From Planktothricoides raciborskii GIHE-MW2 (GTDB lineage: Bacteria > Cyanobacteriota > Cyanobacteriia > Cyanobacteriales > Laspinemataceae), in the NCBI RefSeq assembly GCF_040564635.1, contig NZ_CP159837.1, positions 35,801 to 99,800 on the forward strand: a stretch of DNA of 64,000 bases, read 5' to 3'. Below are positions 1 through 40,514 of the stretch, piece by piece. The translations under genes were made by a program, and so were the position numbers. How positions within the stretch are numbered: position 1 is the first letter of the stretch; each line of letters begins with the position of its first letter. Under the pieces are notes generated by a model that saw only the letters and a program-made list of their open reading frames with translations, did no database searches and was not told the origin of the DNA.

Positions 1-1740
1 GTTAAAGATAGCATTTGTCCCATCAACAGTAATATCTCCACCATTCGTAATAATATTTCCCAGAGTGACTTGATTTCTTGAAATATTGACTGCCCCACCC
101 TGAGTCTGGATGGTATCAGAGGGATTCATGGAAAAATCACCAGTCCCGCTGTAATCAGAGTCGGAGCTAAAGGTGACTGACCCTCCTGTAGCAGTTTTTA
201 GACTAAGAAGATTATCCGATAAATCATCAATTGTGATGTTATTGGTTGCCTCTAAAGAAATATCAGTATTGGTCAGTCCTTCTAAGGCCGTTTCCGAGAT
301 AGTGAAATCTCCAGTACCATCACTACCAAAAATTGATCCATCCCCTGTTACTTCGGCGTCATCAGCGCCACCACTGCCATTAGCGATCGTAATGTTGTCC
401 GGATCTAATAATAAGCTGCCGGTGCTACCTTCTGGGGCGCTGGTGTCAACATCTCCTCGAAAGATTAAATTCTTTTTCCCGGAAACTTCGACCAAGCCAC
501 CATCGCCATTTTGATTGCCACCTTGGGCGCTAATTTCTCCATGAAACCGGGTAGTTTCATCAGCCCAAATAATCACTTGTCCGCCGTCTCCATTTTCTGT
601 GGCATTGGCAGAAATTAGGCTATTTTTATTCACGAAAGTATTTGAAGCGTTGGGTACTTCCCCTTGACCTTGATATTCGCCTCCTACGAGAACTGTCCCA
701 CCGCCATTAGTCCCATTGGCATTTATATTAGTATCCACCAGGGCGACTTTATCCCCTAATACCGCGACAGTTCCCCCAGTAGCAGGGCTATTTGTACTGG
801 TGTTCGAGACATCAATATTGCCAGAAGCTACGGCTACCCCTGGATCTGTAGGTATTCTTGACGTTGAACCCGTCAAACTAATGGTGCCGTCATTGTTAAC
901 AGTGACATGAGAAGCATGGGTAATTTGACCGCCTGTGAGTAAGCTGGGCAAGTCCAATGGTTGAAAGTTTTGGGGCGGTTGATTGCCGGAATTGTTGCAA
1001 TTAGCGGTGGCACATAAGGGTAGTTCTAAACTTAATAAATGATTTTCTTGGTTGATGCGAACGAGGTTTTCTCCGGGCACTGCGGCAATAGTAATGTTGC
1101 CACCGGGAGAAGTGAGACTGCCTAGGTTGACGACTGTACCACCTAAGAGGGTTAAATTTTGCTCTGGGTTGAGGATTAAATTCCCGCTCTGGAGGATAGA
1201 TCCTGGTTGAGAAATGGAAAAAGCAAAGGCTGAAGGTTCGCCGATTAAAGCGCTGTAGTTGTTGTTGCCAAAGGCATTAAACCAACCAGCATTAAAGCCA
1301 ATACCCGTAGCGGTGGTGGCGGTGAAATCACCGGGAATATTTAGGGTGGCATTTGGGCCAAAAATTAATCCCGCAGGGTTGATTAAAAATAAATTAGAAT
1401 TGCCGCCAGTTATTTGAATTAATCCATTAATAATCGAAGCGTTGCCCCCGGTGACTCTGCCGAGAATGTTGTTAATTTCTGGAGCGGAAATAAAATTAGC
1501 CGTTTGTCCGGCATTCAGCCCAAATTCTTGGAAGGAATGAAAGAGGTTCGCCCCATCCCCAGACCGTTGTCCCCCGGTAATGTTGTAGCTGTTGCCGGTT
1601 TGGTTGACTGCGGTGCCAGTGCCGTCAGTTGCAGGTGCGATCGCTTGTCCTAGGGTGATTGTCTGACAAAAAACCAAGGAAAAAGACCCCAATAAAATGC
1701 TTTTTATTATGTAGAGATGGTTTACTGTTGACAGCATCAT
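1..1740 (-). CDS. Large exoprotein with filamentous haemagglutinin N-terminal (TPS) domain. Only the 5' ~580 codons are in the window; the C-terminus lies beyond position 1.
   Basis: Minus-strand frame opens at ATG ~1738-1740 (MMLSTVNHLYIIKSILLGSFSLVFCQTITLGQAIAPATDGTGTAVNQTGNSYNITGGQRSGDGANLFHSFQEFGLNAG...). There is no stop down to position 1. About 80% nucleotide identity of 950-1600 to 8700-9330 shows it is a paralog of the next gene. Antisense plus-strand ORFs 173-514 and 716-910 are artefacts. Confidence 0.8.
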   Translation of the reverse strand, partial: MMLSTVNHLYIIKSILLGSFSLVFCQTITLGQAIAPATDGTGTAVNQTGNSYNITGGQRSGDGANLFHSFQEFGLNAGQTANFISAPEINNILGRVTGGNASIINGLIQITGGNSNLFLINPAGLIFGPNATLNIPGDFTATTATGIGFNAGWFNAFGNNNYSALIGEPSAFAFSISQPGSILQSGNLILNPEQNLTLLGGTVVNLGSLTSPGGNITIAAVPGENLVRINQENHLLSLELPLCATANCNNSGNQPPQNFQPLDLPSLLTGGQITHASHVTVNNDGTISLTGSTSRIPTDPGVAVASGNIDVSNTSTNSPATGGTVAVLGDKVALVDTNINANGTNGGGTVLVGGEYQGQGEVPNASNTFVNKNSLISANATENGDGGQVIIWADETTRFHGEISAQGGNQNGDGGLVEVSGKKNLIFRGDVDTSAPEGSTGSLLLDPDNITIANGSGGADDAEVTGDGSIFGSDGTGDFTISETALEGLTNTDISLEATNNITIDDLSDNLLSLKTATGGSVTFSSDSDYSGTGDFSMNPSDTIQTQGGAVNISRNQVTLGNIITNGGDITVDGTNAIFN

Positions 1741-1794
1741 CACCGATCGCTCCTCGCTAATTTTCTTAATATTATAGCTTACTTATACAAGACA

Positions 1795-2180
1795 GAGAAA
1801 CCGGATTTCTTAATTAAATTTTTGCTAAAAGAAAAAAGTTAACGCAGAAACCCGGTTTCCTCTGGGTCTTGGGGGTTCAGAAACCGGGTTTCTTAACTAA
1901 ATCTTGGCTAAAAGCAAAAAGTTGACGCCGAAACCCGGTTTCTTGTCCCTGGGGGTGAGAAACCTCTTTGCTCTGCCCAGAAACCGGGTTTCTTGAGACA
2001 ACCTTTGCCACCAACCAACAACTTTCATAGAAACCCGGTTTCTTGTCCCTGGGGTTTCTTGTCCCTGGGGGGTGAGAAACAGGGAGAGGTGAGAAACCGG
2101 GTTTCTTTAAACAACCTTTGCCACCAACCAACAACTTTCATAGAAACCCGGTTTCTTGTCCCTGGGGTTTCTTGTCCCTG
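1795..2180. repeat. Array of ~9 copies of a 15-bp palindrome AGAAACCGGGTTTCT. The copies are arranged as ~65-bp MITE-like units and include a ~110-bp tandem duplication (1999-2070 and 2109-2185).
   Basis: Direct reading. Copies lie near 1797, 1847, 1880, 1929, 1981, 2031, 2093 and 2143. The same element occurs at 13183-13245, 26044-26110 and 55266-55350. Confidence 0.85.
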
Positions 2181-2182
2181 GT

Positions 2183-5100
2183 CTACCAAGGGCTACCAAT
2201 TAGGGTAAATGCTGCCCAATAATAAGGATGAGTTAACTTTTGGTTTTCTGCACTTTGCAAGGATTCAGGTAAGGTATAAGTGCCGCGAGAACCGCGTAAT
2301 TGACCCCCTTCAATTTCCACATTACCGTTAATCATTGATAACTGTGCTTGTCGCATGGCTTCCGCTTTAATTGGGGCAATTCCTAACTGTTTATAAAATT
2401 CAGTCATTAGGCCAAATGTACCCTCATCACTGACATACCAAAGAGAGGCGATCGCAGTTTTCACTCCTGCTTGTACGGCTAACCCAGCAAAGCCTAATTC
2501 TGCTTCTTCATTGCCCACCGCAGTCTGGCAAGCGGACAACACTAACAAATCCACTGCTGGATCGTGTAAGCCTAACTGACGAATATCATTTAGACCCAAC
2601 TTTTGATCCCAAAGTTGAATATATGAATTGCTCAAATCTCCGGGGTTAAATTCTCCGTGAGTGGCCAAATGAACAATAGGATATTGTTTCTCGGCGTGTT
2701 GTTTTTGAATATTTTGCAGGGTAAAGTCCTGATTCAAGAAAGATGCTCCCTGGCGAATTTCTTGGGTAATAATTTTCATTTCGGCGGGCACCGCAGGCAA
2801 GGGATTGAGATTGGTAAATTCACTGGCTCCCATTGCTAAAACTGATGCATTTTGAATATTTTGATAGCGGGTATCCGTCAAGCTGAGAGAAGGCATCATG
2901 CCCACACTATATTTTTGCACCAAAAAACTCTCGCCATCATGGAGGGCGGCGATCGGTAAGGTTCGCAAACCCACATCCATAATAAAGGCAATATTTTGGA
3001 TTTCTTTGGCGTCTAATTCCTCGGTTAATGGGGCAATTAACCATTGATAAAGATTTTGGGCTGGTTCTAAATATTTGGTTTGGCGGCGATATCTTGGCGC
3101 GGTGATATAAGTAATCAAATTATCGGCATTGTCCATGACTTCGCGACGAGTCACCGGCAAGACTTTTCTCACCGGACGACCATCAGCCGTCACTAAGATT
3201 AATTCCAAGGGGTCATTGTCTGTATTTCCGGCCAAAGAAGTGGGGGCAAAATAAACATATAACAAAGCAGGTTTGACCCCAGTTTCTCCTTCAATATTAC
3301 GGATAATATTTTGCGCTTGTGGCAGGCTAACATTGACCTGCTTCGACTCGCCAATGTGGTCGCTAAATGCTTGAGTAAAGCTATTTTCAATTTCCGCTAC
3401 CCCTGGATCGACAATGGCGACTTCTTGAGGACTCGCCAGATTTTCCGGTGTGATTTGCCGGACGTTTTCTTCTTCCTCTTCTTCGGTTTCTGAAGGTGAG
3501 TCTAATTCAGTGGCGATCGCCCCTACTTTTTCTGGTGGCAAAATCGATCGCGGTTCTGGTTGTACTCTTTCTGAAATTGGCACAGAAATCGGCGAATTTT
3601 TTTCCGGTTCCAGTTCTACGGATATGGGTTCTAAAGTGATTGGTGCCACTTCTGGAGTAGCCGCGATCGGCTCTGGTGCCACTTCTGGAGTAGCCGCGAT
3701 CGGCTCTGGTGCCACTTCTGGAGTAGCCGCGATCGGCTCTGGTGCCACTTCTGGAGTAGCCGCGATCGCCTCTGGTGCCACTTCTGGAGTAGCCGCGATC
3801 GCCTCTGGTGCCACTTCTGGAGTAGCCGCGATCTCTTCTGCTCCCCCGCTCCCCGGCTCCTCTGCTCCCCCGTCCGGTTCTGGGTCTAACTCCAACGATA
3901 AGGGCATATCATCCCCTGACGCTGGTGCCACTGGGGTTTCATCCACGGCTGGTTCTTCCACCACAGGCGGTTCTTCCGCAGGCGGTTCTTCCACGGGCGG
4001 TTCTTCCACGGGGGTTTCTGGTTCAGCGGTAATCACCCGAATATTCCCTTGTTCCAGCGGGCCGGGGAACGAGGAACCTAGCGGGATCGTATTATTTGCC
4101 CCAGTGGTAATCACCCCAGCAGTGCCGTTGGTCGTGGGATCGCCCACCACAAAGGGAGTATTTTGACTGCCCCCGTTGTGACTGAGACTCACATTGCCAC
4201 TTCCCCCAGCCCCGGCAGTAGAAATACTGGCAACTTGGCCATTTTGGTCGGTAAAAGTATTATTAGCGCGGAAAACGCCCCCAGTGACAATTTCAACATT
4301 GCCACCGCTGCCTCGTAAACCCCCTTGAGCATTAATAAAGCCAACATCAATAAAATCCTCTGGGTCGAGTAAGACATTCCCGCCATTTCCTACCGTACCG
4401 CTGCTATCAATATCCTCAGTGGTAATACTTGTTAATGCCTGAACGGTAATATCGCCCCCGGTTATCCCCGTAGAGGTTAAATTTCCGGTGGTGACAACTC
4501 CGTTGGGACTATTTACAGCGATCGCACCGCCAGTCCCATTAGGATTAGAACTATCCAAGTTGCCCACCGTCACATCACCAACCGGGTTGGTTAAACTGAT
4601 TAAACCCCCACTGGTTGTAATGTTGACGTTATTAGTAATTAGCTGATTATTGCCGGTTAAAATTACACTAGCACCGGCAGAATTGATATCGCCATTTAAT
4701 TCAATGGTATCCGCAGTGGCTTGTAATCCACTATTAATCAAGCCGGTAACAGTTAAACGATTTAAAGGGGTGAGATTACCCAGAATTCCCCCAAAAGAAA
4801 CGCGACCAGTTCCGGCATTTAACGTCAGCGTCCGGTTGCCATTAATCGTTCCGGTAAATATGATATCCCCAGCCCCCGCGCCAGTATCCAAAGTAAGATC
4901 GTTGTTGAGAATCATATCTCCAGCGATCGCGATCGTTTGGTTGTTGGTACTAATCCCGGCATTTAAGAACAGATTACTGGTGTTAAAATTCACCGTAGCA
5001 TTATCGATCGCAGTAATCGTTCCGTTGACCGTTACTTGCCCTGTTCCTGATTGAATTGTCACCGGATCGCTAAAGCTAATCGCCCCTAAATTTACCATCC

Positions 5101-8100
5101 CAGTTCCATCACTGCGACCAATAGTAATACTGCTAAATCCATTAGATAAATTCGCGATTTCTGCCAGAGAAATGTTAAAGGTTCCGGTTTCACCTCCAAT
5201 TTCAATGGGAGTATTTTGATTAAATGGTTGTAAGATTAAATTGCCTGGACTGGTGAGAGTATTATTTAAGGCAATAGTATCGCCAGTAAAAGTGATATTA
5301 CTGGCGGCATTAATCGCCCCGGTGGTAGAAATGCCGCCATTATTTGCCGTGACATTTAAAAGACCGCCACTGGTTAGGTTATTGTTGAGAGAGATAGAAT
5401 TTCCCGTCAGGGTAATATCTGTCCCCGCTTCAACAATTTCCGTAGAAATATCGCCATTATTTGCCGTGACATTTAAAAGACCGCCACTGGTTAGGTTATT
5501 GTTGAGAGAGATAGAATTTCCCGTGAGGGTAATATCTGTCCCCGCTTCAACAATTTCCGTAGAAATATCGCCATTATTTGCCGTGACATTTAAAAGACCG
5601 CCACTGGTTAGGTTATTGTTGAGAGAGATAGAATTTCCCGTGAGGGTAATATCTGTCCCCGCTTCAACAATTTCCGTAGAAATATCGCCATTATTTGCCG
5701 TGACATTTAAAAGACCGCCACTGGTTAGGTTATTGTTGAGAGAGATAGAATTTCCCGTGAGGGTAATATCTGTCCCCGCTTCAACAATTTCCGTAGAAAT
5801 ATCGCCATTATTTGCCGTGACATTTAAACTACCGCCCACCGTAGAACTGCCTAAATTTACTGCATTAGCACTGGTAATATTAGCATCAGCCCCAGCGCCA
5901 TTAGTATTGACCGTAATTATTCCCGGTGTTGCTAGTTGACTTAAAGTAATATCTGCCCCAATTGCAGTAGTCGTAAAAGTGCTATTTCCCCCAATGGCGA
6001 TCGGGCTATTCCCAGTAATATTGCCATTTGCTGTAATTTCTAAATTACCGGAAATGTTAGCCGTTCCTAAACTAAGAGTTTGGCCGTTATTCACAAACAA
6101 ATTTCCTGTAACATTATTAATATTTATTTGGCTAACATTTGTCTCCAAAGAATTCAACGAATCGCCCACACTTCCCGATGTATTTAAGACTACAGTACCA
6201 TTAGCGGCGATCCTGATATCTGTCCCGGTAAAAGGGCTGGTAATGCTACCAGTATTTAAAGTTAAAGTCCGATTATTACCCAAGGTAATGCCGTCATTAA
6301 ACGACACCGCCCCACCCTGTAAGGTCAGGTCAAAAGTCTGGTTACTTAAATTAACGGGACTGGCAATATTAAGCGCTCCCGTGCCACCCGTGCTACCAAT
6401 TGTCACCCCATTAAATCCACTGATTGACTGAAGTTCTGCTTCGGTTAAATTCAAACCCGGTGACTGGTTAATCCCACCGATTTCAATTGGTGAGTTATCG
6501 ATTATTGGTTGCACAAGTAAGCTGCCATTACCGGATATTGTCCCATTGATATTTAATTCCCCAGCAGTGATTTGTGGGTTGGAATTAACAAAGGTGACGT
6601 TACCGTTATATTCTTGAGTGCCAAGAGTGGTGACATTGCCATTAATACTTGTGTTTTGTCCTAATATGTTAAGACTATTCAGACGGGTATTATTACCAAC
6701 GGCGCCACCAATATTAACATTGCCAGTCCCCGCATTTAGGGTTAAATTGTAACTCCCGTCTATAGTTCCCTGAAAATCAATAGTACCAGATCCACTATTC
6801 AAAGTAGCATCAGCCCCTAAAGTGGTGTTGCCGATAATGCCGATGTTTTGATTGTTAGTAGTAATATCGGCATTTAATGTTGTTGGGCCGATGAGAGTCA
6901 CAGAAGCGTTATCATTTCCCAAAATTTGAAAATTGTTTGTAATCGAACCACCGGGAGACTGAATCGTCACTGGGTCTGAAAATCCTAGACCGGAAGTTGG
7001 CCCATCGATAGTAATGGCACCCGTACCGTCAGCCCGTCCAATAGTAATAGAATTAAAACCGTTTTGAATATTAGCTAATTCTGACTCGGTTAAATATAAA
7101 ATCCCTACTCCAGTACCTCCAGACCCTCCCAGGGAAATATTTTGCCCCACGGTGGTAGGTTGCAGAGTTAGACTGCCCGTACCAGAGATACTACCTACAT
7201 TGTTAATATTAATTTCGTCTGCTGTGAGAGTGAGGGCATTATTTCCAACAATTAAAGGAGCATTTATTTCAATTGACCCCGTTCCACCCTGAATAATTGT
7301 AGTTGTGCTTAAAGTGAGAGAAGGAGCGTTGCCGCTAATTTCAATAAAGTTTGTGGCATCAGTACGACCAATAGTAATCGAGTTAAATCCCGCATTTTGC
7401 AGTAAATTGAACTCGCTATTACCGCTAGAGTTGCTGTCCAGACATAAGAAGCCTGGACTACATCCGGTAGAATTGTTAATATAAATACCCTGATTGCTGT
7501 CCCCTTGCTGAATGACTAAATCTAGTCCGGTTTGAGTGGTGGATATAGTATTGGTATCTAAGTTAATATCATTGGCCGTAAGGGTGACATAATTGCCAAA
7601 TTGAACTGTCGGCGGACTATTAGCCCTTCCTGCTCTGCGTAAGTCAATAAAACCAATTCCCGCATCAATATTTCCATTGACGGTAATGGTGCTGTTGCTG
7701 CCAGTTTCCGCGATGAAATTTCCCCCATTGGTGGTGATATTTCCCAGATTAATTTGATTTCCTGTGCGGGAAGAATTACCCGCTGAAATTGTGATATCTC
7801 CTCCCTGTGTCACGATCGCATCCGCAGGATTCATAGTAAAATCACCGACTCCATTAAAATCAGCATCGGCGATCAAACTCACTGATCCAGCAGCACCCAT
7901 TTGCAGACTCAGGGTATTGTCTGATAAGTCTTCAATAGTGATATTGTCGGCGGCTTCTAAAATAATACTACTATTAGCCCCGATCGCTTCTAATGCCGTT
8001 TCAGAAATAGTGTAATTTGCGCCTGCGGTGAGCGTATCATCGAAAATGACTCCTTCGGGATCGCCAAAAGGTTCACCCGCATTCAATTGGTTATCATTAG

Positions 8101-9520
8101 GCGCACCACTGCCATCAACAATGGTAATATTATCTGGGTCTAATAATAAAGTGCCGGTGCTACCTTGGGGGGCGCTGGTGTCTACCTGACCTCGGAAAAT
8201 TAAATCTTGTTTGCCGGAAACTTCAACAAAGCCACCATTGCCATTTTGACTGCCACCTTTGGCGCTAATTTCTCCATGAAACCGGGTAGTTTCATCAGCC
8301 CAAATAATGACTTGTCCCCCGTCGCCATTTTCTAAAGAATCCACAGAAATCAGCGTATCTTTACTGACGAAAGTTTCTGAAGCGTTGGGGACTTCTCCTT
8401 CGCCGCGATATTCTCCTCCGACTAAGACCACACCGCCATCATCAATCCCACTGGCGTTAATAAGGGCATCGACTAAGGCAACTTTGTCCCCTAATACAGC
8501 GATCGCGCCCCCAGTCCCATTGCCATTCGTGCTGGTATTTGAGACATCAATATTACCGGAAGCCACGGTGACACCGGGATCTGTGGGTATTCTTAGGGTT
8601 GAACCTGTGAGGCTGATGGTGCCGTCATTGTTAACCGTCACGTTGGAAGCATGGGTGATGTGACCCCCAGTGAGTAAGCTGGGCAAGTCTAAGGGCTGAA
8701 AGTTTTGCGGCGGTTGGTTAGGGGAATTGTTGCCCGTGGGTGAGGTGGGAATTTCTAAGCTGAGGAGATGGTTTTCCTGGTTGATGCGAACCAGGTTTTC
8801 TCCCGGTACGGCAGCAATGGTGATATTACCACCGGGAGAGGAAAGGGTGCCTAAGTTGACGACTGTTCCCCCCAAGAGGGTTAGCTTTTGTTCGGGGTTG
8901 AGGCTGAGGTTGCCTTCATTGAGAATAGCCCCCGGTTGGGAGAGGGAAAAGGCAAAGGTGGAGGGTTCGCCCACTAAGGCGCTGTAGTTGTTGCTGCCAA
9001 AGGCGTTGAAGGCTTCTGAGTTAAAGCCAATGTTGGTGGAGGTGGTGGCGGTGAAGTCCCCTAAAACGTTGAGACTGGCGTTGGGGCCAAAAATAATGCC
9101 CGCAGGGTTCATTAAGAATAGGTTGGAGTTGCCCCCGGTGACTTGAATTAAGCCGTTAATAATAGAGGCGTTGCCCCCGGTGACTCTGCCAAGGATGTTG
9201 TTGATTTCTGGAGAGGAGAGAAAGTTGGCGGTCTGTCCCGCGTTGAGGCCAAATTCTTGGAAGGAGTGGAAGAGGTTCGCCCCGTCCCCAGACCGTTGTC
9301 CCCCGGTAATGTTGTAGGTGTTGCCGGTTTGGTTGACTACGGTTCCAGTGTTGTCAGCAGCAGGAATAGGTGCGGTTTGCGCGATCGCATTTTCGCCCAT
9401 AATGCCACAAATTACATTGATTGCCCCCAGGATTCCATAAAATATGACCAAATTTTTAGTCTTCCGAGTTATTAGTTGGGCTTCAGCCTTCCCAGTTTGT
9501 CGCTGTTGATGGTAGTTCAT
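2183..9520 (-). CDS. Giant exoprotein (2445 aa). It has an N-terminal filamentous haemagglutinin/TPS secretion domain, a long beta-helical repeat region, a Pro/Glu/Thr-rich linker and a C-terminal CHAT (caspase-like peptidase) domain.
   Basis: Complete 7338-nt ORF. The N-terminus reads NITGGQRSGDGANLFHSFQEFGLNAGQTANF (TPS-domain signature). The C-terminus reads IVHLATHGEF ... DLLVLSACQTAVG (CHAT His/Cys dyad). Internal exact repeats are present. Confidence 0.9.
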   Translation of the reverse strand: MNYHQQRQTGKAEAQLITRKTKNLVIFYGILGAINVICGIMGENAIAQTAPIPAADNTGTVVNQTGNTYNITGGQRSGDGANLFHSFQEFGLNAGQTANFLSSPEINNILGRVTGGNASIINGLIQVTGGNSNLFLMNPAGIIFGPNASLNVLGDFTATTSTNIGFNSEAFNAFGSNNYSALVGEPSTFAFSLSQPGAILNEGNLSLNPEQKLTLLGGTVVNLGTLSSPGGNITIAAVPGENLVRINQENHLLSLEIPTSPTGNNSPNQPPQNFQPLDLPSLLTGGHITHASNVTVNNDGTISLTGSTLRIPTDPGVTVASGNIDVSNTSTNGNGTGGAIAVLGDKVALVDALINASGIDDGGVVLVGGEYRGEGEVPNASETFVSKDTLISVDSLENGDGGQVIIWADETTRFHGEISAKGGSQNGNGGFVEVSGKQDLIFRGQVDTSAPQGSTGTLLLDPDNITIVDGSGAPNDNQLNAGEPFGDPEGVIFDDTLTAGANYTISETALEAIGANSSIILEAADNITIEDLSDNTLSLQMGAAGSVSLIADADFNGVGDFTMNPADAIVTQGGDITISAGNSSRTGNQINLGNITTNGGNFIAETGSNSTITVNGNIDAGIGFIDLRRAGRANSPPTVQFGNYVTLTANDINLDTNTISTTQTGLDLVIQQGDSNQGIYINNSTGCSPGFLCLDSNSSGNSEFNLLQNAGFNSITIGRTDATNFIEISGNAPSLTLSTTTIIQGGTGSIEINAPLIVGNNALTLTADEININNVGSISGTGSLTLQPTTVGQNISLGGSGGTGVGILYLTESELANIQNGFNSITIGRADGTGAITIDGPTSGLGFSDPVTIQSPGGSITNNFQILGNDNASVTLIGPTTLNADITTNNQNIGIIGNTTLGADATLNSGSGTIDFQGTIDGSYNLTLNAGTGNVNIGGAVGNNTRLNSLNILGQNTSINGNVTTLGTQEYNGNVTFVNSNPQITAGELNINGTISGNGSLLVQPIIDNSPIEIGGINQSPGLNLTEAELQSISGFNGVTIGSTGGTGALNIASPVNLSNQTFDLTLQGGAVSFNDGITLGNNRTLTLNTGSITSPFTGTDIRIAANGTVVLNTSGSVGDSLNSLETNVSQININNVTGNLFVNNGQTLSLGTANISGNLEITANGNITGNSPIAIGGNSTFTTTAIGADITLSQLATPGIITVNTNGAGADANITSANAVNLGSSTVGGSLNVTANNGDISTEIVEAGTDITLTGNSISLNNNLTSGGLLNVTANNGDISTEIVEAGTDITLTGNSISLNNNLTSGGLLNVTANNGDISTEIVEAGTDITLTGNSISLNNNLTSGGLLNVTANNGDISTEIVEAGTDITLTGNSISLNNNLTSGGLLNVTANNGGISTTGAINAASNITFTGDTIALNNTLTSPGNLILQPFNQNTPIEIGGETGTFNISLAEIANLSNGFSSITIGRSDGTGMVNLGAISFSDPVTIQSGTGQVTVNGTITAIDNATVNFNTSNLFLNAGISTNNQTIAIAGDMILNNDLTLDTGAGAGDIIFTGTINGNRTLTLNAGTGRVSFGGILGNLTPLNRLTVTGLINSGLQATADTIELNGDINSAGASVILTGNNQLITNNVNITTSGGLISLTNPVGDVTVGNLDSSNPNGTGGAIAVNSPNGVVTTGNLTSTGITGGDITVQALTSITTEDIDSSGTVGNGGNVLLDPEDFIDVGFINAQGGLRGSGGNVEIVTGGVFRANNTFTDQNGQVASISTAGAGGSGNVSLSHNGGSQNTPFVVGDPTTNGTAGVITTGANNTIPLGSSFPGPLEQGNIRVITAEPETPVEEPPVEEPPAEEPPVVEEPAVDETPVAPASGDDMPLSLELDPEPDGGAEEPGSGGAEEIAATPEVAPEAIAATPEVAPEAIAATPEVAPEPIAATPEVAPEPIAATPEVAPEPIAATPEVAPITLEPISVELEPEKNSPISVPISERVQPEPRSILPPEKVGAIATELDSPSETEEEEEENVRQITPENLASPQEVAIVDPGVAEIENSFTQAFSDHIGESKQVNVSLPQAQNIIRNIEGETGVKPALLYVYFAPTSLAGNTDNDPLELILVTADGRPVRKVLPVTRREVMDNADNLITYITAPRYRRQTKYLEPAQNLYQWLIAPLTEELDAKEIQNIAFIMDVGLRTLPIAALHDGESFLVQKYSVGMMPSLSLTDTRYQNIQNASVLAMGASEFTNLNPLPAVPAEMKIITQEIRQGASFLNQDFTLQNIQKQHAEKQYPIVHLATHGEFNPGDLSNSYIQLWDQKLGLNDIRQLGLHDPAVDLLVLSACQTAVGNEEAELGFAGLAVQAGVKTAIASLWYVSDEGTFGLMTEFYKQLGIAPIKAEAMRQAQLSMINGNVEIEGGQLRGSRGTYTLPESLQSAENQKLTHPYYWAAFTLIGSPW
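3645..3838. repeat. In-frame 33-bp tandem repeat (~6 copies) inside the exoprotein gene. It encodes IAATPEVAPEP units of the linker.
   Basis: The unit ccgcgatcggctctggtgccacttctggagtag is repeated nearly perfectly. Confidence 0.85.
5335..5830. repeat. In-frame 123-bp tandem repeat, four near-perfect copies, inside the exoprotein gene. Each copy is a 41-aa unit LLNVTANNGDISTEIVEAGTDITLTGNSISLNNNLTSGG.
   Basis: Identical 123-bp blocks start near 5337, 5457, 5580 and 5703. Confidence 0.9.
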
Positions 9521-9837: not shown

Positions 9838-10040
9838 TATTAAGTGCCGATAAGGGCGAAGCATTCAGGTAATTATCTTTCTGGTTAAAACCGATAATTA
9901 ACTGCCGATAAGGGCGAAGCATTCGGGTAATTATCTTTCTGGTTAAAACCGATAATTAACTGCCGGTAAAGGCGAAGCATTCAGGTAACAACTACTGTTA
10001 AAACAAGCAAGTTAACTGCCCGAATGCTTCGCCCCTACAG
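9838..10040. repeat. Three tandem ~63-bp units containing the motif GGGCGAAGCATTC. An inverted copy of the motif (AATGCTTCGCCCCTACAG) follows.
   Basis: Direct reading. The same motif family recurs at 21815-21885, 22100-22195, 53340-53640 and 56107-56185. Confidence 0.8.
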
Positions 10041-10172: not shown

Positions 10173-11900
10173 TTAGCTAAATTGTTGGGCATAAAATCGC
10201 GCATAACGCCGTCCTTTTTCCAGCAGTTCTTGATGGGTTCCAGATTCAATGATGCGCCCCTGTTCTATGACTAAAATGCGATCGCATCGTCGGACTGTGG
10301 CGAGACGGTGGGCAATAATAAATACGGTGCGCTCATGCATCAATCTTTCGATTGCTTCTTGTACCAAGGCTTCTGATTCTGAATCTAAGGCCGAAGTTGC
10401 TTCATCTAAAAGTAAAATTTGCGGATTTAATAAAACAGCGCGGGCGATCGCAATTCTTTGGCGCTGACCCCCGGATAAATTAACGCCTCTTTCCCCTACC
10501 TGAGTATAATATCCATCGGGTAATTGACAAATAAATTGATGAGCATTCGCTGTATGTGCCGCTGCTTCTACGGCATTTAGATCATAATTGTGTTGACCAA
10601 AAGCAATATTTTCGGCAATAGTGCCAGAAAAGAGCATAGTTTCCTGGGGAACAATGCCAATTTGACGGCGTAAACTAGGAATTTTTACATCGCGAATATC
10701 AATCCCATCAATTAAAATTTGTCCCCCTTGCACATCATAAAATCGGGGTAATAAATTCACCAAAGTAGATTTACCAGCCCCCGAAGCCCCCACCAGAGCG
10801 ATCGCCTCTCCTGGTAATACCAATAAATTCAGATTTTCCAGCACTGGGTAACCGGGATGATAGGCAAAAGTCACATTTTTATATTCCACCTGACCCTTAA
10901 CTGGAGGTAAAGCGATCGCAGTAAGGGATTTTTCCTTTACTACTGGTTGAATAGCTAACAGTTCAAACACGCGATCGACGGAAGCTTCTCCTTGTTTAAA
11001 CTCATTATAATTACTGGTAGTAATAGAAATCGGATCAATTAATAACGCCACCGCTGTGGCATAACTAACAAATTCACTCCCGGTCAAATTGCCTTGAGAA
11101 ATTTGCCAACCCCCCAACAAAAATAGCAACAAAACGCTGAGGGCTTCTAAAAAACCAATCACGGGAAATTGAATCGCTTTAAGACGTTCAGCGGCATATT
11201 TGGCTTGGCGGTTGCGAATAGCCACTTCCCGAAATTTACTTAAGCTATATTCTTCAGCGGCAAAAGCTTGGACAACCCGAATACCGCTAAAAACCTCTGT
11301 CACCAAAGCGGATAAGTCAGAAATCCGATTTTGACTGTGGTGCGAAAATACCCGCAGGCGATCGCCAAACCAACCAATCAACACCGCCATCACTGGGGCA
11401 ATAATTAATGTGGCAATCGTTAGCTGCCAATTGAGATAAATCATATATCCCAACAACACCACCAACTGCAACACACAAGGAACAAACTGATGAAAAACTT
11501 TATTTACTACTTCGCCAGTGCGATCGATGTCCTCCGTGAGGCGATAGGACAAGTCGCCAGTTTTGGCCCTAGCAAAATAACCTGGACTTAAATTCAATAA
11601 ATGAGCATAAACTCGTTGGCGCAGATCCAAGGTCAAATCGAGGGCAGCTTTGGCCATCAACGCATCTTGACCATATTGTGCAGCACCGCGCAGCAGAAAA
11701 ATCACCGCCGCCAGTCCCGCAACTTGGGCGATCGCGCTGACTTTTCCCTGACCAATCAATCCGGCAATTTGCCCTGCTAATTGGGCTAAAATCGGCCAAA
11801 AACAAGTAAATGCCAGAGTACAAATCAATGCTTGAGTAATGGTTTGCCAATGGCGGCGTAAATAGGGCAACAATTGCCAGTAGCTAGATCGCAATTTCAC
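10173..11900 (-). CDS. ABC transporter with fused permease and ATP-binding domains (MsbA/exporter type).
   Basis: 575 aa with an N-terminal six-TM permease region. Walker A is GASGAGKST, the ABC signature is LSGGQRQR, and Walker B is LLLDEATSALD. Confidence 0.9.
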   Translation of the reverse strand: MKLRSSYWQLLPYLRRHWQTITQALICTLAFTCFWPILAQLAGQIAGLIGQGKVSAIAQVAGLAAVIFLLRGAAQYGQDALMAKAALDLTLDLRQRVYAHLLNLSPGYFARAKTGDLSYRLTEDIDRTGEVVNKVFHQFVPCVLQLVVLLGYMIYLNWQLTIATLIIAPVMAVLIGWFGDRLRVFSHHSQNRISDLSALVTEVFSGIRVVQAFAAEEYSLSKFREVAIRNRQAKYAAERLKAIQFPVIGFLEALSVLLLFLLGGWQISQGNLTGSEFVSYATAVALLIDPISITTSNYNEFKQGEASVDRVFELLAIQPVVKEKSLTAIALPPVKGQVEYKNVTFAYHPGYPVLENLNLLVLPGEAIALVGASGAGKSTLVNLLPRFYDVQGGQILIDGIDIRDVKIPSLRRQIGIVPQETMLFSGTIAENIAFGQHNYDLNAVEAAAHTANAHQFICQLPDGYYTQVGERGVNLSGGQRQRIAIARAVLLNPQILLLDEATSALDSESEALVQEAIERLMHERTVFIIAHRLATVRRCDRILVIEQGRIIESGTHQELLEKGRRYARFYAQQFS

Positions 11901-13182: not shown

Positions 13183-13245
13183 TCAGAAACCGGGTTGCGG
13201 TAATTTCTACCCAAGATAAGAAACCCGGTTTCTGTCACCCGCAGA
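13183..13245. repeat. Pair of inverted GAAACCGGGTT/AACCCGGTTTC palindromic elements just downstream of a gene stop.
   Basis: tcagaaaccgggttgcgg...agaaacccggtttctg. Confidence 0.7.
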
Positions 13246-16044: not shown

Positions 16045-17358
16045 TTAATTGGCTTTAGGGCGAACGACCAAAACCCCATAAGCATCAGGAGAAAGATATT
16101 TTTGGGTCGCTTCTAGGATATCCACTGGTTGCACCGATTGAATGTGTTGAGGATAATTTAATGCCGGGGCTAATTCGGCAATCATTGATTGATAATAGCC
16201 ATATAAGTTGGCTCGATCGCTGGGGGTTTCATTGCCAAAAATAAACCGATTCGCCACTTGAGTCCGAATGCGAGTAATTTCCGCTTCGGTGACAAATTCC
16301 TGATGTAAGGTGCGAATATGTTGGGCGATCGCAGCTTCGACGATTGCTATATTTTCTGTGGGTAAATCCACGGAAATATAAAAAAGTCCTTGAACTCGGT
16401 GGTTGATATTGCTCACAGAAATACTAGAGATTAATCCCCGGTCTTCTCGTAAATCTTGAACCATGCGGGATGTCCGACCTGAGCCTAAAATAGAGGCTAG
16501 TATATCCAAGGGATAAGTTTGCTCCAAGTCCAGCAAACCGGGGACTCGCCACATCATTACCAGTCGCGCTTGTTGCAGGGCTTCATCGACAATTTCTTCC
16601 CGAATAATTTGCTCAAAATTTGCTTCTGGGGTGAGCATTTCCAGGTGGTGATACCTAGGGGAGCGATCGCTTTTTTCGCTCCACTGAGGCTTAATCTGTG
16701 TTAATCCTTCCGCAATAATTTCTATCATCTCCTCCACGGGCAAATTCCCCACCGCCACTGCGGTCAAGGACTCCGGTTGATACCATTGGGCGTGAAAATC
16801 CCGCATTTGCTGTGGGGTGAGGCTAGAAATCACCTCTACAGGACCGAGTACGGGACGGCGGTATGGTAAGTGGTTAAATGCCAGTTTCATTGCCCGGTAA
16901 TAGGTGCGACGACGAGGATTATCTTGCGATCGACGAATTTCTTCAAGCACCACCAAACGCTCTTTTTCAAAAGCTTCATCGGGAATAGTCGGGTTGAGTA
17001 CCACATCCATTTGTAACGGCGCGAGTTCCGCAAAATCTTTCGGCGCAGTGGTAATGTAGTAGTGAGTGTAATCTTGACTGGTGGCGGCATTGGTGACAGC
17101 ACCGCGCTCTTCGATTTTACGCTCAAACTCTCCACTAACCAGTTGTTCCGTGCCTTTAAAAATCATGTGTTCCAGAAAATGCGCCATGCCATTGATTTCA
17201 TTGGCTTCTATGGCTGAACCAATGGGGTTCCAGAGGTTAAGATTGACCGCTTCTACGGGCATTTGTTCGACCACAATTGTCAAACCATTGGGTAATCGAT
17301 GAATGGTCGGTGAGTTAAGGCGATTGACGATAGGAGATTTGAGCAGCGTTGATATCAT
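16045..17358 (-). CDS. M16-family (insulinase/pitrilysin-like) zinc peptidase.
   Basis: 437 aa. The inverted zinc motif HFLEHMIFKGT (HxxEH) is present, and the overall M16 fold is retained. Confidence 0.9.
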   Translation of the reverse strand: MISTLLKSPIVNRLNSPTIHRLPNGLTIVVEQMPVEAVNLNLWNPIGSAIEANEINGMAHFLEHMIFKGTEQLVSGEFERKIEERGAVTNAATSQDYTHYYITTAPKDFAELAPLQMDVVLNPTIPDEAFEKERLVVLEEIRRSQDNPRRRTYYRAMKLAFNHLPYRRPVLGPVEVISSLTPQQMRDFHAQWYQPESLTAVAVGNLPVEEMIEIIAEGLTQIKPQWSEKSDRSPRYHHLEMLTPEANFEQIIREEIVDEALQQARLVMMWRVPGLLDLEQTYPLDILASILGSGRTSRMVQDLREDRGLISSISVSNINHRVQGLFYISVDLPTENIAIVEAAIAQHIRTLHQEFVTEAEITRIRTQVANRFIFGNETPSDRANLYGYYQSMIAELAPALNYPQHIQSVQPVDILEATQKYLSPDAYGVLVVRPKAN

Positions 17359-17635
17359 GGATTAAATAATCGGCGGATTGTACGTTCCTGGATCTATCTT
17401 AATCATCTTGGCCAAAAAAATCTGGCAAAAATAGAGAAAAGGAGACAATAACCCAGGTTAAGACAAAATTAATCCAGGCTTGCCTCTGGTGAGAACTACT
17501 GAGAACTGTCCCCAGGGTAAACTCCGAGCAAAAAACTTACCTGGATCGAAAATAAGGCTTTTTCGCTGTTTTCATTATGATTAGATGCTCGATTAATTTT
17601 ATTTAGGTGATTTTCCAAGGATTTATTAAGTTATT

Positions 17636-22196: not shown

Positions 22197-24131
22197 TTAT
22201 GTTTCTGCCAAACCCACCCCCTGTTGTTGCAAATAATACGCCACTCTTTCCCGCAATTGATCCACGGTTAAATTTTTTGTCCAATATTCCACTAAACCAT
22301 GACCAAATGCCCAAGCATTCCGGTCAGGAGAGGCAGGATTTTCTAATAACAATGGCCAAATTGCCAGTAATTCAAAATTGACCTGATTATTGTCGTTACT
22401 TAATAACGTAAACAAGTCATAAGCCATTTGTAATTTACCAATTACCATCGGCAACTGTTCAATGGGAATTTTTTCTGCTAATAAATAGGCTAAGGTGGGA
22501 TTTCCGGTAGTTAATGTCGAAATAAATTGCAATACCGGACTTTTTAATAAAGCGGTTAGCCCTTGGGTGGTGGACATTTGAAATGTGTAGCGATCGATGA
22601 TTTTGGCGGCGGCAATGGTACGAGTTTCTAAGTCTCGGAAAAACCGGGCTAACCGTAATTGTTTGACCGGCGCGATCGCCTCTATCAAACTTAAAGATAG
22701 GCTGTCAATATTCCACCCTTGCCGATCGCTTTTCGGGTCAAAACTGACCACCGGCAACACCCGATCGCAGAATTCTCCTAACATTTCCGTGCGATATTCT
22801 GTGGCTTCTCGGATCGATTTTTCCTTCGGGCGATCGCCCCAAACCCAATCATAAGGGGGTTGCCATTCGCGAATTGGACGCAGGCGATCGACCTGAGTGA
22901 CAATTGCGATCGCGGGTAAATCTTGCACCTCTTTTTTAATATCCTTAAGAAAATCCACATCCATTTGCAAAGCGGGATCTAATGCCGGAGTCACCAGTAA
23001 TAATAAATCCGCATTATTAGCATATTCTAATACTTGGTCACGCAAGTCGGATTTATTCACTTGTTCATAACCGGGACTATCCCAAAGAGTCAGAGTTTCT
23101 CCGGTGTCCGTTTGCCAATGGTAACTTTGAATGCGATCGGTACTCGGCAACACATCCACTGCGGCTAATTCTGCCTGAAATATGGTATTAATTAGACTAC
23201 TTTTCCCCGCCCCAGTTCTGCCTACTAATAAAATATTCACCGGCTTTTGCTCCACTTTTTCCGGGGGATCTGCTGCCGCCAAAATTTCTTGTAAAGTCTG
23301 CGTTTTTGCTTTCGGCAAACTAGGAGTAGATACCGCCAAATTTTCCCCTGGAAGTTGGTTGCCTCCGTAGAGTGCGATCGCCTGCCGACACAGGTTTCGC
23401 AGGGCTGCTTCCCGCACCATAAAACTCAAGTTTGCCAATAATTGCTGATTAGCTTGTTCGCTATATTTCTTACTAGCTACTCGCGCTGCCGCTGCTGCTG
23501 GGTTCACCAACCATTGTACCCACCCCCACGCTTGCATTAATTTGCGTGCCGAAGGTTCTAATTTGCGATAAATTTCATAAGCTTGATAAGCTTGCCCCAC
23601 AGTGACTTGATTCAGTACCGGGGATAATTGCTGCATCCACCGATCCATATCATCCACCGTCCCCCGAATTAAACCATAAGCTTGAGGCACATAAATATTC
23701 AGCAACGGGTATTTTACTGTTGGGTGATAAATATGGGCAACTGCTATCACCATGTCTTGACATTCTTGCCAAAAATTTTGCCAATCATCCCATATCGGGC
23801 GATCGCTTTGAGACTCTTTTAATATTTTTTGTAATGCCACTTCTGCTTTTTTGGCAGCATCATCCGCCCCTAGTTTTTGTTTAGTTTCCTCATTGATTAT
23901 TTCTATTTTTTCATTCATAGAAGCGATCGCTGCTTCTACCTCGTCAATTTGCGATCGCGTCCAGCGAACTATAAGCGATCGCCACCCCACTAAAACCAGA
24001 GTGACAACCCCCCAAATCCAATTAATCCCCCATTCGCTAATTTGGGTTCCTGCTGCTACTAGGAGAAACGTAATAATGAGGGCGATCGGGAGGGCTAAAA
24101 CCACCCACTGCCAAAGTTTTAAACGTACCAT
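22197..24131 (-). CDS. Membrane-anchored GTPase (MMR_HSR1/Era-like G domain, N-terminal 2 TM plus coiled coil).
   Basis: 644 aa. G1 is LVGRTGAGKSSLIN, G3 is DSPG, G4 is TQVD. Hydrophobic helices occur at residues ~8-50. Confidence 0.8.
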   Translation of the reverse strand: MVRLKLWQWVVLALPIALIITFLLVAAGTQISEWGINWIWGVVTLVLVGWRSLIVRWTRSQIDEVEAAIASMNEKIEIINEETKQKLGADDAAKKAEVALQKILKESQSDRPIWDDWQNFWQECQDMVIAVAHIYHPTVKYPLLNIYVPQAYGLIRGTVDDMDRWMQQLSPVLNQVTVGQAYQAYEIYRKLEPSARKLMQAWGWVQWLVNPAAAAARVASKKYSEQANQQLLANLSFMVREAALRNLCRQAIALYGGNQLPGENLAVSTPSLPKAKTQTLQEILAAADPPEKVEQKPVNILLVGRTGAGKSSLINTIFQAELAAVDVLPSTDRIQSYHWQTDTGETLTLWDSPGYEQVNKSDLRDQVLEYANNADLLLLVTPALDPALQMDVDFLKDIKKEVQDLPAIAIVTQVDRLRPIREWQPPYDWVWGDRPKEKSIREATEYRTEMLGEFCDRVLPVVSFDPKSDRQGWNIDSLSLSLIEAIAPVKQLRLARFFRDLETRTIAAAKIIDRYTFQMSTTQGLTALLKSPVLQFISTLTTGNPTLAYLLAEKIPIEQLPMVIGKLQMAYDLFTLLSNDNNQVNFELLAIWPLLLENPASPDRNAWAFGHGLVEYWTKNLTVDQLRERVAYYLQQQGVGLAET

Positions 24132-24274: not shown

Positions 24275-25423
24275 ATGAATAAATTGGAAAATATATCAGT
24301 AAAGGGTTTTCGCCGTCTTCACAATATTGACCTTGAGATGAGAAATCTCACCGTGATGATTGGCGCGAATGGATCCGGAAAAACTTCTTTTTTAGATGTT
24401 TTTTCCATCCTAGCTGCTTCCGCCAGTGGAAATTTACATCAACAATTACAACTAAAAGGCGGATTTCATGAAATTTTGACCAGAGGGAAAGCGCGAGAAT
24501 TAGAAATTTCCCTGGCAATGAACGTACCAGACAGAGAACCTTTAAAGTATCGTTTAGCCTTATCTCCGAAAGGTTTATCCTATGAAATTAGAGAAGAAAC
24601 TCTAACCCAACAGAGCGACATCTACGCCCCTGAACCTTTTAAATATATTCAATCCGATGGTTTAGACATTAAATATTTTAGTCAGGAAGATTCCCGAATC
24701 TTAAGACCAACTTGGGAACACAATCCCCTGGAAACTTCTCTTTCTCAAGTTCCAAAAATGTATCGCGAACCGGAAAATTTGCGAAAGAGTCTTGCTTCTT
24801 GTACCTATTATGGCGCACTGGATGTTTCCGAAAAAAGTCCGATTCGTTTACCTCAAGCAATGCGCCCTGCAAAATTGCCTGGTGCCAAAGGTGAAGACTT
24901 GGTTTCCTGTCTTTATGACCTGCGAGAAAGCGATCGCGATCGCTTCGAGTTTCTGGAAAATATTCTATCTGCTGCCTTTCCCGATTTTGAGCGATTAAAC
25001 TTTCCTCCGGTTGCCGCTGGAACTATTTCTATGACTTGGACAGATAGAAATTTTTCTCAACCAATTTATCTCCATGAATTATCAGAAGGAACCTTACGTT
25101 TTTTGTGGTTGGCAACGCTTATACAAAGTCAAAATTTAACTACAATCACCTTAATCGATGAACCAGAGGTGAGTTTGCATCCCGACCTTTTAAGACATTT
25201 AGTCTATTTAATGAGAGAAGCGGCAAAACACACACAACTAATCGTAGCTACCCACTCCGATCGACTGATTGGATTTCTAGAACCCCACGAAGTTTTGATT
25301 TGCGATCTCGAAGAAGGAGAAGCAAAAATGAACTGGGCTGATACACTTAATTTAAGTAAATGGTTAGAAGATTACAGCCTTGACCAAGTTTGGGCAATGA
25401 ATATCATGGGAGGTCGTCCATGA
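24275..25423 (+). CDS. ABC-type AAA_21-like ATPase (OLD/AbiL-like ATPase component).
   Basis: 382 aa. Walker A is GANGSGKTSFLD. Walker B and D-loop read ITLIDEPEVSLHPDLLRHL, followed by H-loop ATHSD. Confidence 0.85.
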   Translation: MNKLENISVKGFRRLHNIDLEMRNLTVMIGANGSGKTSFLDVFSILAASASGNLHQQLQLKGGFHEILTRGKARELEISLAMNVPDREPLKYRLALSPKGLSYEIREETLTQQSDIYAPEPFKYIQSDGLDIKYFSQEDSRILRPTWEHNPLETSLSQVPKMYREPENLRKSLASCTYYGALDVSEKSPIRLPQAMRPAKLPGAKGEDLVSCLYDLRESDRDRFEFLENILSAAFPDFERLNFPPVAAGTISMTWTDRNFSQPIYLHELSEGTLRFLWLATLIQSQNLTTITLIDEPEVSLHPDLLRHLVYLMREAAKHTQLIVATHSDRLIGFLEPHEVLICDLEEGEAKMNWADTLNLSKWLEDYSLDQVWAMNIMGGRP

Positions 25424-26043: not shown

Positions 26044-26110
26044 ATAAACCGGGTTTCTGAGATAATTGTTGGATTGTCACCAAAATCTTTCAGAACAAAC
26101 CCGGTCTCTG
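26044..26110. repeat. GAAACCGGGTTTC palindromic element pair between convergent genes.
   Basis: aaaccgggtttctgag...cagaacaaacccggtctctg. Confidence 0.7.
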
Positions 26111-38698: not shown

Positions 38699-38699
38699 A

Positions 38700-38768
38700 G
38701 TGCTGAATATTTGCTGAATATTTGCTGAATATTTGCTGAATATTTGCTGAATATTTGCTGAATATTTT
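38700..38768. repeat. 11-bp tandem repeat TGCTGAATATT, 6 copies, at the serpin 5' end.
   Basis: Direct reading. Confidence 0.85.
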
Positions 38769-39225
38769 GTTTGGGATTTGTTAAAGGAAAGTGTCCGGGC
38801 AATCTCCGCTTGTCCTTGATTCAATTTACACCCTGTTTTTGAGGCAAATGTCAGCGGTCTTTCCCGGCTGAAAAGTCTGAGCTTAAAACCGGGGGCGATG
38901 ACGATGAAAAGTTTGAGCATCAGCGAGAGTGCCGAAAGGCTAATCTGCCGATCGCAACGGAGCGATCGCCGTCAAAATCAGCCACTTCATCTATATTGTC
39001 CATTGATCAGAAGCGACTTTCCCCCAACTAAACACCCTATCCGATTCTAACCAACTGGCTGCTTGCAACGGCTCAACAGAATCAACTGTAGCATTTTCCA
39101 ACTGATAACGCTAAAGGAAAAGGAATTGTTTCCAAGTCTATGGGACTCCTCAACTCTCTATCAGTCATGGGGCAGACTTCTTGCCCTCAATCCAGCAAAC
39201 CGGATCAACGATCGATTCTCAAACC

Positions 39226-40442: not shown

Positions 40443-40514
40443 GGCTCAGTAGCTCAGTGGTAGAGCAGGGGACTCATAAGCCCTTGGTCGCGTGTTCAAA
40501 TCACGCCTGAGCCA
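40443..40514 (+). tRNA. tRNA-Met (anticodon CAU; could alternatively be lysidine-modified tRNA-Ile2).
   Basis: Cloverleaf read by hand. The acceptor GGCTCAG/CTGAGCC pairs with a G1-C72 pair, so it is not an initiator. D-arm is GCTC/GAGC. Anticodon loop CTCATAA has CAT at 40475-40477. T-arm is GCGTG/CACGC with TTCAAAT. The discriminator is A and CCA is not encoded. Confidence 0.85.

Follow-up and report, generated by a model that had tools for sequence, protein, structure and literature searches.

Two neighbouring minus-strand genes at the start of a 64,000-nucleotide stretch of the Planktothricoides raciborskii GIHE-MW2 genome (contig NZ_CP159837.1, positions 35,801 to 99,800; the stretch at its full length is called the window here) are supported by their domain matches as genes for exoproteins of the TpsA type, as known from two-partner secretion (TPS). 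The complete one of the two, gene A, is predicted to end in a caspase-like protease, a CHAT module with an intact His/Cys dyad, which is likewise supported. Both genes belong to a known, database-annotated family and do not represent a new kind of system. Our tentative reading is that the proteins form a surface fibre that is exported via Sec and an unlinked TpsB transporter, and that the CHAT module serves as periplasmic stopper and built-in processing protease. The features of the locus are, with positions counted from the first nucleotide of the window:

1-1740, minus strand: gene B, a paralogous gene for a TPS exoprotein (Pfam TPS match), truncated by the window start; 580 codons from its 5' end are visible
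1796-2181, no strand assigned: spacer between genes A and B with four hairpin units of about 64 nt bounded by the palindrome AGAAACCSGGTTTCT (repeat families D1/D2, inverted repeats)
2183-9520, minus strand: gene A, a complete exoprotein gene (TPS, stalk, linker, CHAT) of 2445 amino acids (aa), from open reading frame (ORF) and translation; stop codon at 2183-2185
2186-3394, minus strand: C-terminal CHAT module, aa 2043-2445 (Pfam PF12770; family hidden Markov model (HMM) match aa 2043-2446; AlphaFold2 (AF2) model)
2528-2530, minus strand: codon of Cys2331 (LSACQT), the presumed catalytic cysteine, invariant in alignments
2657-2659, minus strand: codon of His2288 (HLATHG), the presumed catalytic histidine, invariant in alignments
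3416-4033, minus strand: Pro/Glu-rich low-complexity linker, aa ~1830-2035 (~200 aa), from composition
3641-3833, minus strand: tandem repeat of 33 nt (11 aa, IAATPEVAPEx) in the linker, 5.8 copies (Tandem Repeats Finder, 99% matches)
4034-8101, minus strand: central Gly/Asn/Thr/Ser/Ile-rich repeat region, presumed beta-helical stalk, aa ~474-1829 (~1350 aa), from composition
5325-5836, minus strand: near-perfect tandem repeat of 117 nt (39 aa), stalk aa 1229-1399, 4.4 copies (Tandem Repeats Finder, 98% matches)
8102-9379, minus strand: TPS secretion domain and first beta-helix coils (Pfam, NCBIfam, PDB sequence matches)
9380-9520, minus strand: predicted Sec signal peptide of gene A, aa 1-47, read from the translation
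10173-11900, minus strand: MsbA/HepA-like ATP-binding cassette (ABC) exporter, 575 aa (Pfam, NCBIfam)

In the predicted signal peptide of gene A, a basic n-region is followed by the hydrophobic stretch LVIFYGILGAINVICGIMG and by a likely cleavage site between AIA and Q, and the combination of basic n-region, hydrophobic core and AxA-like site is readable by eye at the N-termini of genes A and B alike. A TPS domain (PF05860) follows in both: at aa 48-257 in gene A (E 3.6e-42) and at aa 38-246 in gene B (E 8.7e-43), confirming the TPS domains that a preliminary description of this DNA had placed there. Gene A also matches the NCBIfam family TIGR01901 (adhes_NPXG, E 5.3e-22), with LMNPAGIIFG as its NPxG motif. 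The closest solved relatives of the N-terminus in a PDB sequence search are EtpA (8vba, E 2.4e-29) and the HMW1 adhesin (2odl, E 1.3e-16), and the EtpA-like region reaches to about aa 473, thus covering the N-terminal ~470 aa. The label 'FhaB-like' of the preliminary description is correct in so far as both genes encode TpsA-type exoproteins, but it is a loose one: EtpA and HMW1 are the nearest solved proteins, and Pfam detected no FHA-type repeats (Fil_haemagg / Fil_haemagg_2) in gene A, where its matches were confined to TPS, a DUF5649 repeat match (aa 1138-1195) and CHAT. The peptides quoted in the same description (NITGGQRSGDGANLFHSFQEFGLNAG, HLATHGEF and LSACQT) are all present in the translation.

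At the other end of gene A, the CHAT domain reported earlier is confirmed by profile: PF12770 matches aa 2152-2443 with an E-value of 7.2e-71 (239.4 bits, cut-off 24) and is covered nearly completely, from profile position 2 to 289 of 289. An AF2 model of the module, built with 25 homologues (database proteins), has a mean pLDDT of 92 and a pTM of 0.92. When the C-terminal 415 aa were compared with the PDB by Foldseek, the first match was Csx29 (8eey_B, E 4.6e-15, TM 0.6), with the whole module of ~400 aa aligning to the CHAT region of Csx29; separase, DdvA (8rot_A, E 6.8e-8), SAVED-CHAT and gingipain R were further matches, all in agreement with a CHAT/separase-type fold. Fold comparison alone worked: PDB sequence searches with the CHAT module, either as single sequence or as a 65-sequence profile (phmmer/hmmsearch), returned nothing meaningful. 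His2284, His2288 and Cys2331 are invariant both in an alignment of 65 sequences (relatives from many genera) and in one of 26 sequences, so that the dyad proposed in the preliminary description is conserved. As these 65 relatives come from many cyanobacterial orders, catalysis is probably under selection. The distance from His2288 to Cys2331 is 43 residues; the dyad residues of DdvA, H862 and C907, are 45 residues apart (PMC11506125). Cys2331 is the single cysteine of the module. A search for a role in defence with PADLOC gave just a weak generic CHAT match (BovA, E 1e-6) and we rejected this role.

Between the two ends lie the presumed stalk and the linker. In each 100-aa block of the stalk, Gly, Asn, Thr, Ser and Ile together make up 45-69% of the residues, while Cys, Lys and Arg are almost lacking, and an HMM of the TPS region matches the internal repeats of gene A again. 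From this composition and the EtpA-like start of the helix, the stalk is presumed to be a beta-helical passenger. The gene A stalk region 4034-9379 encodes 72 N-x-S/T sequons, against 48.5 +/- 5.8 after shuffling. N-glycosylation is known from the adhesins HMW1 and EtpA; an HMW1C-like glycosyltransferase was not seen in the window. In the linker, Pro and Glu account for 36-41% of each 100-aa block and for 50% of the best 60-aa window. Comparable Pro-rich linkers, with a window of at least 40% Pro+Glu, occur in only 19 of 120 homologues.

Gene B starts with an ATG at position 1740, preceded by GAGGAG, and its ORF leaves the window at position 1. Since both genes are on the minus strand, gene B lies downstream of gene A and not upstream, as stated previously. 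The nucleotide identity between the two genes is 73.5% by codon-based alignment (55% at third positions) and 74.7% over the aligned coding part by direct DNA alignment, rising to 79.7% over the best 1.24 kb; windows of 100 nt give values between 57% and 92%, and no identical run is longer than 48 nt. The 80-95% identity that had been given for the N-terminal 1.5 kb thus fits the TPS core only, and the overall value is about 75-80%.

The remainder of the array can be predicted from the sister strain FACHB-1370, whose syntenic locus (L001) differs from the window in repeat copy number and is otherwise ~99% identical to it. There, an MsbA-like ABC gene is followed by three tandem TPS-CHAT genes with products of 2356, 2310 and 2509 aa. 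The first 1950 nt of gene A are 100% identical to the first gene of this array, and the best database match of the gene A protein is a 'CHAT domain-containing protein' of FACHB-1370 (P0001, 88% identity). Gene B is 96.7% identical, on nucleotide level, to the second array gene, whose product of 2310 aa has TPS, DUF5649 and CHAT domains (a further database protein, P0003, differs from this product by 12 residues). Because the near-identical locus of FACHB-1370 has three tandem TPS-CHAT genes, gene B almost certainly also ends in CHAT, and the locus in GIHE-MW2 is probably part of a tandem array of three genes, the third of which should lie beyond the window start.

The preliminary description had further suggested that the similar 5' ends set the genes up for recombination or cassette switching. 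This is not supported: orthologues of the two strains are 97-100% identical and paralogs ~73%, and whichever 50-codon window is compared, the orthologues are far closer. Recent gene conversion between the paralogs, of which this comparison gives no sign, was therefore rejected. What varies between the strains is the copy number of the 117-nt and 33-nt repeats: relative to FACHB-1370, two copies of the 117-nt repeat and one of the 33-nt repeat are extra in the window (together 89 aa), the sole structural difference in gene A between these two ~99% identical strains. Such a change at strain level marks the stalk as a fast-evolving, presumed surface structure. Gene A and the third paralog align only at their ends, at 55% over ~500 N-terminal aa and at 69% (amino acid level) over ~450 C-terminal aa; the CHAT module is the most conserved part between paralogs, at these 69%, and is 35-57% identical across orders. 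Conserved termini and a variable middle are found both between the paralogs and in the family.

From the stop codon of gene A to the start of gene B there are 440 bp, most of them taken up by the hairpin units. The RNA of the spacer is predicted to be highly structured (-165.9 kcal/mol, z = -7.0), and a terminator scan found no canonical terminator on the minus strand. The palindrome AGAAACCSGGTTTCT has 11 matches in the window (0 expected), and other copies are positioned just 3' of ORFs (13219-13233, 26044-26058 and 55287-55301). Both array spacers of FACHB-1370 are filled by the same hairpin elements (17098-17375 and 24516-24730 of L001), and the spacer units appear to be hairpin repeats of a dispersed type, placed at the ends of genes. 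Gene B may have a promoter of its own, as there is a TATAAT box some 40 nt upstream of it.

The combination of a TPS domain with a C-terminal CHAT domain, taken as unusual in the preliminary description, is very common in cyanobacteria: of the 8000 proteins scored in a full-length search, 3644 are homologues at E<=1e-10. PF05860 and PF12770 occur together in nearly all of the best 120. These proteins come almost entirely from filamentous cyanobacteria and are named either 'CHAT domain-containing protein' or 'filamentous hemagglutinin family protein' in the databases. About 20 of the best 120 (for example P0025-P0028, P0034 and P0093) have extra glycosyltransferase family 2 domains (PF00535, PF13641, PF10111; precomputed), odd beside TPS and CHAT in a secreted protein. 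To describe gene neighbourhoods, we used the TPS region to collect 80 related loci and grouped the ORFs on their flanks into clusters; neighbour counts refer to the 57 loci of at least 15 kb. This contig search returned no Planktothricoides locus, the best identity being 60%. Almost every complete gene found via its TPS domain in the related loci also ends in CHAT, and the proteins range from 1141 to 3661 aa with the two ends alike. Tandem copies of TPS-CHAT genes are present in nine of the 57 loci. The recurrent neighbours are a CHASE2 sensor Ser/Thr kinase (23 loci), a response regulator/histidine kinase (15), DUF928 (14) and DUF1822 (8), often in fixed order and on one strand. A neighbourhood with CHASE2 kinase, DUF928 and DUF1822, with or without TpsB, was seen at L007, L008, L012, L015, L018, L024, L066, L072, L078, L079 and L082. 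The 64-kb window itself contains neither response-regulator/histidine kinase nor DUF1822 neighbours of this kind.

The second-largest cluster of neighbours, after the CHASE2 kinases, consists of a protein of 586 aa with POTRA_2, ShlB and Omp85 domains, a TpsB. It is adjacent to the TPS-CHAT gene in 20 of the 57 loci, usually just upstream and divergently transcribed; O. acuminata PCC 6304, whose genome is complete, has no TpsB within 10 kb of the TPS-CHAT gene. Together, these two observations indicate a true family of TPS proteins, commonly with an unlinked transporter. In agreement with the earlier remark on the absence of a TpsB, none of the window ORFs of 300 aa or more has a ShlB, POTRA or Omp85 domain by Pfam, the six-frame translation of the 64 kb has no match, even at E<=10, to an HMM made from the 22 TpsB genes that neighbour relatives, and the sister strain, too, has no TpsB within 10 kb upstream. 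As none is found in the window, we infer that the cognate TpsB of the gene A and B proteins is encoded elsewhere in the genome. TpsB proteins of this type are frequent in cyanobacteria (more than 3600; 3674 matches in a profile search), and Heinz and Lithgow have described the Hmw1B-type subgroup of TpsB as rich in cyanobacterial sequences (PMC4104836).

The ORF of 575 aa at 10173-11900, considered as the missing TpsB, was rejected, as domain scans identify it as an MsbA-like ABC exporter. The gene precedes gene A by 650 bp, has the same orientation and is found at the corresponding position in the sister strain. The protein scores best as MsbA or HepA-like and stays below all curated NCBIfam cut-offs, type I secretion included; ABC exporters of ~575-596 aa are found within 10 kb in four related loci. 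The 650-bp region upstream of gene A has a 58-nt unit repeated 2.6 times (9839-9988, 94% matches), which contains the inverted motifs GAATGCTTCGCC/GGCGAAGCATTC.

From these data and from known systems, we tentatively propose the following sequence of events. Each TPS-CHAT protein would cross the inner membrane via Sec, and its HMW1/EtpA-type TPS domain would then be recognised by a ShlB/FhaC-type TpsB encoded elsewhere. The Gly/Asn/Thr-rich repeat region would be threaded outwards, N-terminus first, and fold into a beta-helical fibre on the surface: this fibre would be the variable, strain-polymorphic part of the protein, with possible roles in adhesion, at the filament surface or in gliding, and possibly a target of phages. 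Because TpsA proteins are threaded N-terminus first, the Pro/Glu linker and the globular CHAT module would reach the channel last, and CHAT would most likely fold on the periplasmic side. There, it may act both as a stopper and as a protease that cuts the flexible linker, its own or that of a neighbour, and thus matures or releases the fibre. The export route in GIHE-MW2, the periplasmic location of CHAT, self-cleavage and the role of the fibre are all parts that we infer. Precedents exist for two of them: the C-terminal parts of FhaB and CdiA remain periplasmic during TpsB-dependent export, making a periplasmic CHAT most likely by analogy, and for the cutting of the linker there is DdvA, a protein with a periplasmic TPR-CHAT for which cleavage of its flexible linker in trans has been proposed (PMC11506125). 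A periplasmic CHAT is also consistent with the recurrent neighbours, since both the CHASE2 kinase and the DUF928 protein, which has a signal peptide, have extracytoplasmic parts.

Among known systems, HMW1 of Haemophilus influenzae and EtpA of enterotoxigenic E. coli share with gene A the TPS domain plus the first coils and a long, repeat-rich passenger, and cyanobacterial TpsB fall in the Hmw1B subgroup (PMC4104836); in contrast to gene A, they have no C-terminal protease, and their operons hold both TpsB and a glycosyltransferase (HMW1C/EtpC), neither of which is in the window. FhaB of Bordetella is also a giant TpsA, and the Pro/Glu linker and globular C-terminal module of gene A are arranged like its C-terminal region. 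This region of FhaB, the prodomain, which includes a proline-rich stretch, remains periplasmic, governs export and is lost by proteolytic cleavage. However, it is non-enzymatic and removed by separate proteases, whereas the C-terminus of TPS-CHAT proteins is itself a predicted caspase-like protease; further differences are that fhaC is linked to fhaB and that gene A has no FHA-type repeats in Pfam. CdiA, with its partner CdiB, has TpsA-type export, a long beta-helical stalk and a functional C-terminal domain that is held in the periplasm until triggered. Its tips are polymorphic, follow a VENN-type pretoxin motif and come with an immunity gene, while gene A has a conserved C-terminus, neither such a motif nor an immunity ORF. 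DdvA has the same fold by Foldseek (E 6.8e-8), is extracytoplasmic and has a long flexible linker that is proposed to be cut in trans (PMC11506125), but it sits in the inner membrane, contains TPR repeats and an anti-sigma domain on the cytoplasmic side, has neither TPS nor beta-helix, and regulates a CBASS/CRISPR island. Csx29 (the TPR-CHAT protein of the type III-E Craspase), separase, HetF and SAVED-CHAT are similar in fold and His/Cys dyad to the C-terminal 415 aa; they are cytoplasmic, are regulated by TPR, Cas7-11, securin or cyclic nucleotides, have no fusion to a secretion domain and lack sequence similarity to the CHAT of gene A by phmmer or hmmsearch. Features of a Craspase were looked for and not found: gene A has no TPR region in Pfam, there is no cas-like ORF among the scanned window ORFs, and Rfam found one tRNA alone.

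Several points weigh against a periplasmic stopper and linker-cutting protease. No conserved cleavage motif was found in the linker of gene A, and the linker composition varies, with just the 19 of 120 homologues mentioned above reaching 40% Pro+Glu. Extracellular activity is known for clan CD proteases such as the gingipains, one of which is among the fold matches of CHAT. There is no TpsB in the 64-kb window, and the best 120 of the 3674 TpsB profile matches are all from other genera, none from Planktothricoides. The CHASE2 and DUF928 partners, which hint at a periplasmic action, are not in the window. Finally, our literature searches, which also covered DUF928/CHASE2 and the exoproteome, yielded passing remarks but no experimental study of any TPS-CHAT protein. 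Mussmann et al. (2007) noted that multiple exoproteins with haemagglutination domains are common to filamentous cyanobacteria and Beggiatoa and proposed a function in gliding or in sheath or filament formation (PMC1951784); a Trichodesmium preprint lists such exoproteins among large, repeat-rich conserved hypotheticals; and a phage-resistant mutant of Nostoc 7120 has a change in the TPS-domain protein alr1906, which is classed as cell-surface and for which PF05860 alone is listed (PMC10811720).

Of the two functions suggested in the preliminary description, a contact-dependent effector and a self-processing module, the latter is the more plausible. An effector would leave the cell as a whole protein and its CHAT module would act on other cells, grazers, phage or matrix, similar to the tip of CdiA or to LepA. 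TpsA proteins with C-terminal toxins, as in contact-dependent inhibition, or with protease activity (LepA) are established, clan CD proteases can be extracellular, with gingipain R among the fold matches, and a module with a single cysteine has no disulfide that would be needed or disturbed outside the cell. We nevertheless disfavour the effector and consider it rather unlikely: conservation is highest in the C-terminal module, which is no polymorphic tip, Pfam detected no VENN or pretoxin motif, no immunity-like ORF follows downstream, where the 440-bp spacer consists of hairpin repeats, and a globular domain of ~400 aa would need to remain unfolded in the periplasm to pass the TpsB channel. 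An ORF of 85 aa at 1877-2134 was rejected as immunity gene, as it is wholly within the hairpin repeats. The conserved CHAT is thus best read as a processing or signalling module rather than as a polymorphic toxin. For signalling, the fibre would sense contact, a ligand or a phage and thereby activate the periplasmic CHAT, which would cleave a partner such as DUF928 or otherwise alter the sensor of a CHASE2 kinase and so relay the signal into the cell; in Planktothricoides, these partners would be encoded elsewhere. The idea draws on the gene order DUF1822 - CHASE2 kinase - DUF928 - TPS-CHAT, which recurs on one strand at six of the loci (L015, L066, L072, L078, L079, L082), on the recurrent Nostocales order TpsB | TPS-CHAT - CHASE2 kinase - DUF928, on the 23 of 57 loci with a CHASE2 kinase, on the invariant dyad and on DdvA, which uses a periplasmic CHAT for transmembrane signalling (PMC11506125). 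With the DUF1822, CHASE2 and DUF928 partners absent both from the window and within 10 kb in the sister strain, with ~60% of the related loci having no kinase, and with gene neighbourhood as the only basis for the association, signalling as the main function is as doubtful as the effector. A combination of fibre, pore and kinase, a trans-envelope proteolytic device, is more doubtful still: here the surface fibre would be tethered through the TpsB pore and the Pro-rich linker to the periplasmic caspase-like protease, and contact, phage or mechanical pull would lead to fibre release and to signalling via CHASE2 Ser/Thr kinases and DUF928.

Two further explanations have much less in their favour. 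CHAT could be a structural plug or anchor without any proteolytic role, as the prodomain of FhaB works without being an enzyme and the CHAT of DdvA was captured in a resting, non-aligned state (PMC11506125). A pure plug would not be expected to keep His2288, Cys2331 and several residues around them invariant across 65 sequences of distant cyanobacteria, and we regard this explanation as very unlikely. It is even more improbable, to the point of being far-fetched, that the proteins leave the cell through the neighbouring MsbA-like ABC exporter, on a route similar to type I secretion, and need no TpsB. The ABC gene is close to gene A, on the same strand and in an arrangement conserved in the sister strain, and exporters of similar size are found at the four related loci; yet the proteins begin with predicted signal peptides and have TPS domains of high score, the neighbourhood lacks a partner of the HlyD or TolC type, the ABC protein resembles MsbA or HepA and misses every curated cut-off, and 20 of the 57 related loci carry a true TpsB.

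Further features were noticed in other parts of the window. An AAA_21 ATPase at 24275-25423 on the plus strand matches the candidate defence protein HEC-01A of PADLOC (E 1.4e-71) and adjoins a dynamin/LeoA-like GTPase at 22197-24131 on the minus strand, and a NACHT-domain NTPase of 614 aa (51332-53176, minus strand) has a weak PADLOC match to PDC-S60. A tRNA-Met (40443-40514) is followed by a weak phage-integrase-like ORF (40628-41731) and a DUF3987 protein (42383-44446), and this stretch may be an integrated mobile element. A serpin of 498 aa is encoded at 37424-38920 on the minus strand (Pfam E 2e-117) and has an N-terminal extension of ~130 aa; it is ~28 kb from the CHAT-bearing genes. HIP1 sites (GCGATCGC) were seen in the sequence.

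The significance of the two genes lies in their family: there are thousands of giant TpsA proteins with an invariant caspase-like protease, often encoded beside a TpsB, a CHASE2 kinase or a DUF928 protein, and what the protease does at the end of a TpsA is a family-wide question, with nothing special to this window. Locating CHAT and its substrate would add a new functional class to two-partner secretion, and would extend extracytoplasmic caspase-like proteolysis, so far represented by DdvA, to the surfaces of cyanobacteria. The answer would bear on filament surface biology, gliding, adhesion and phage adsorption. If the trans-envelope device, unlikely as we consider it, were true, it would amount to a caspase-type surface-sensing pathway of multicellular cyanobacteria.

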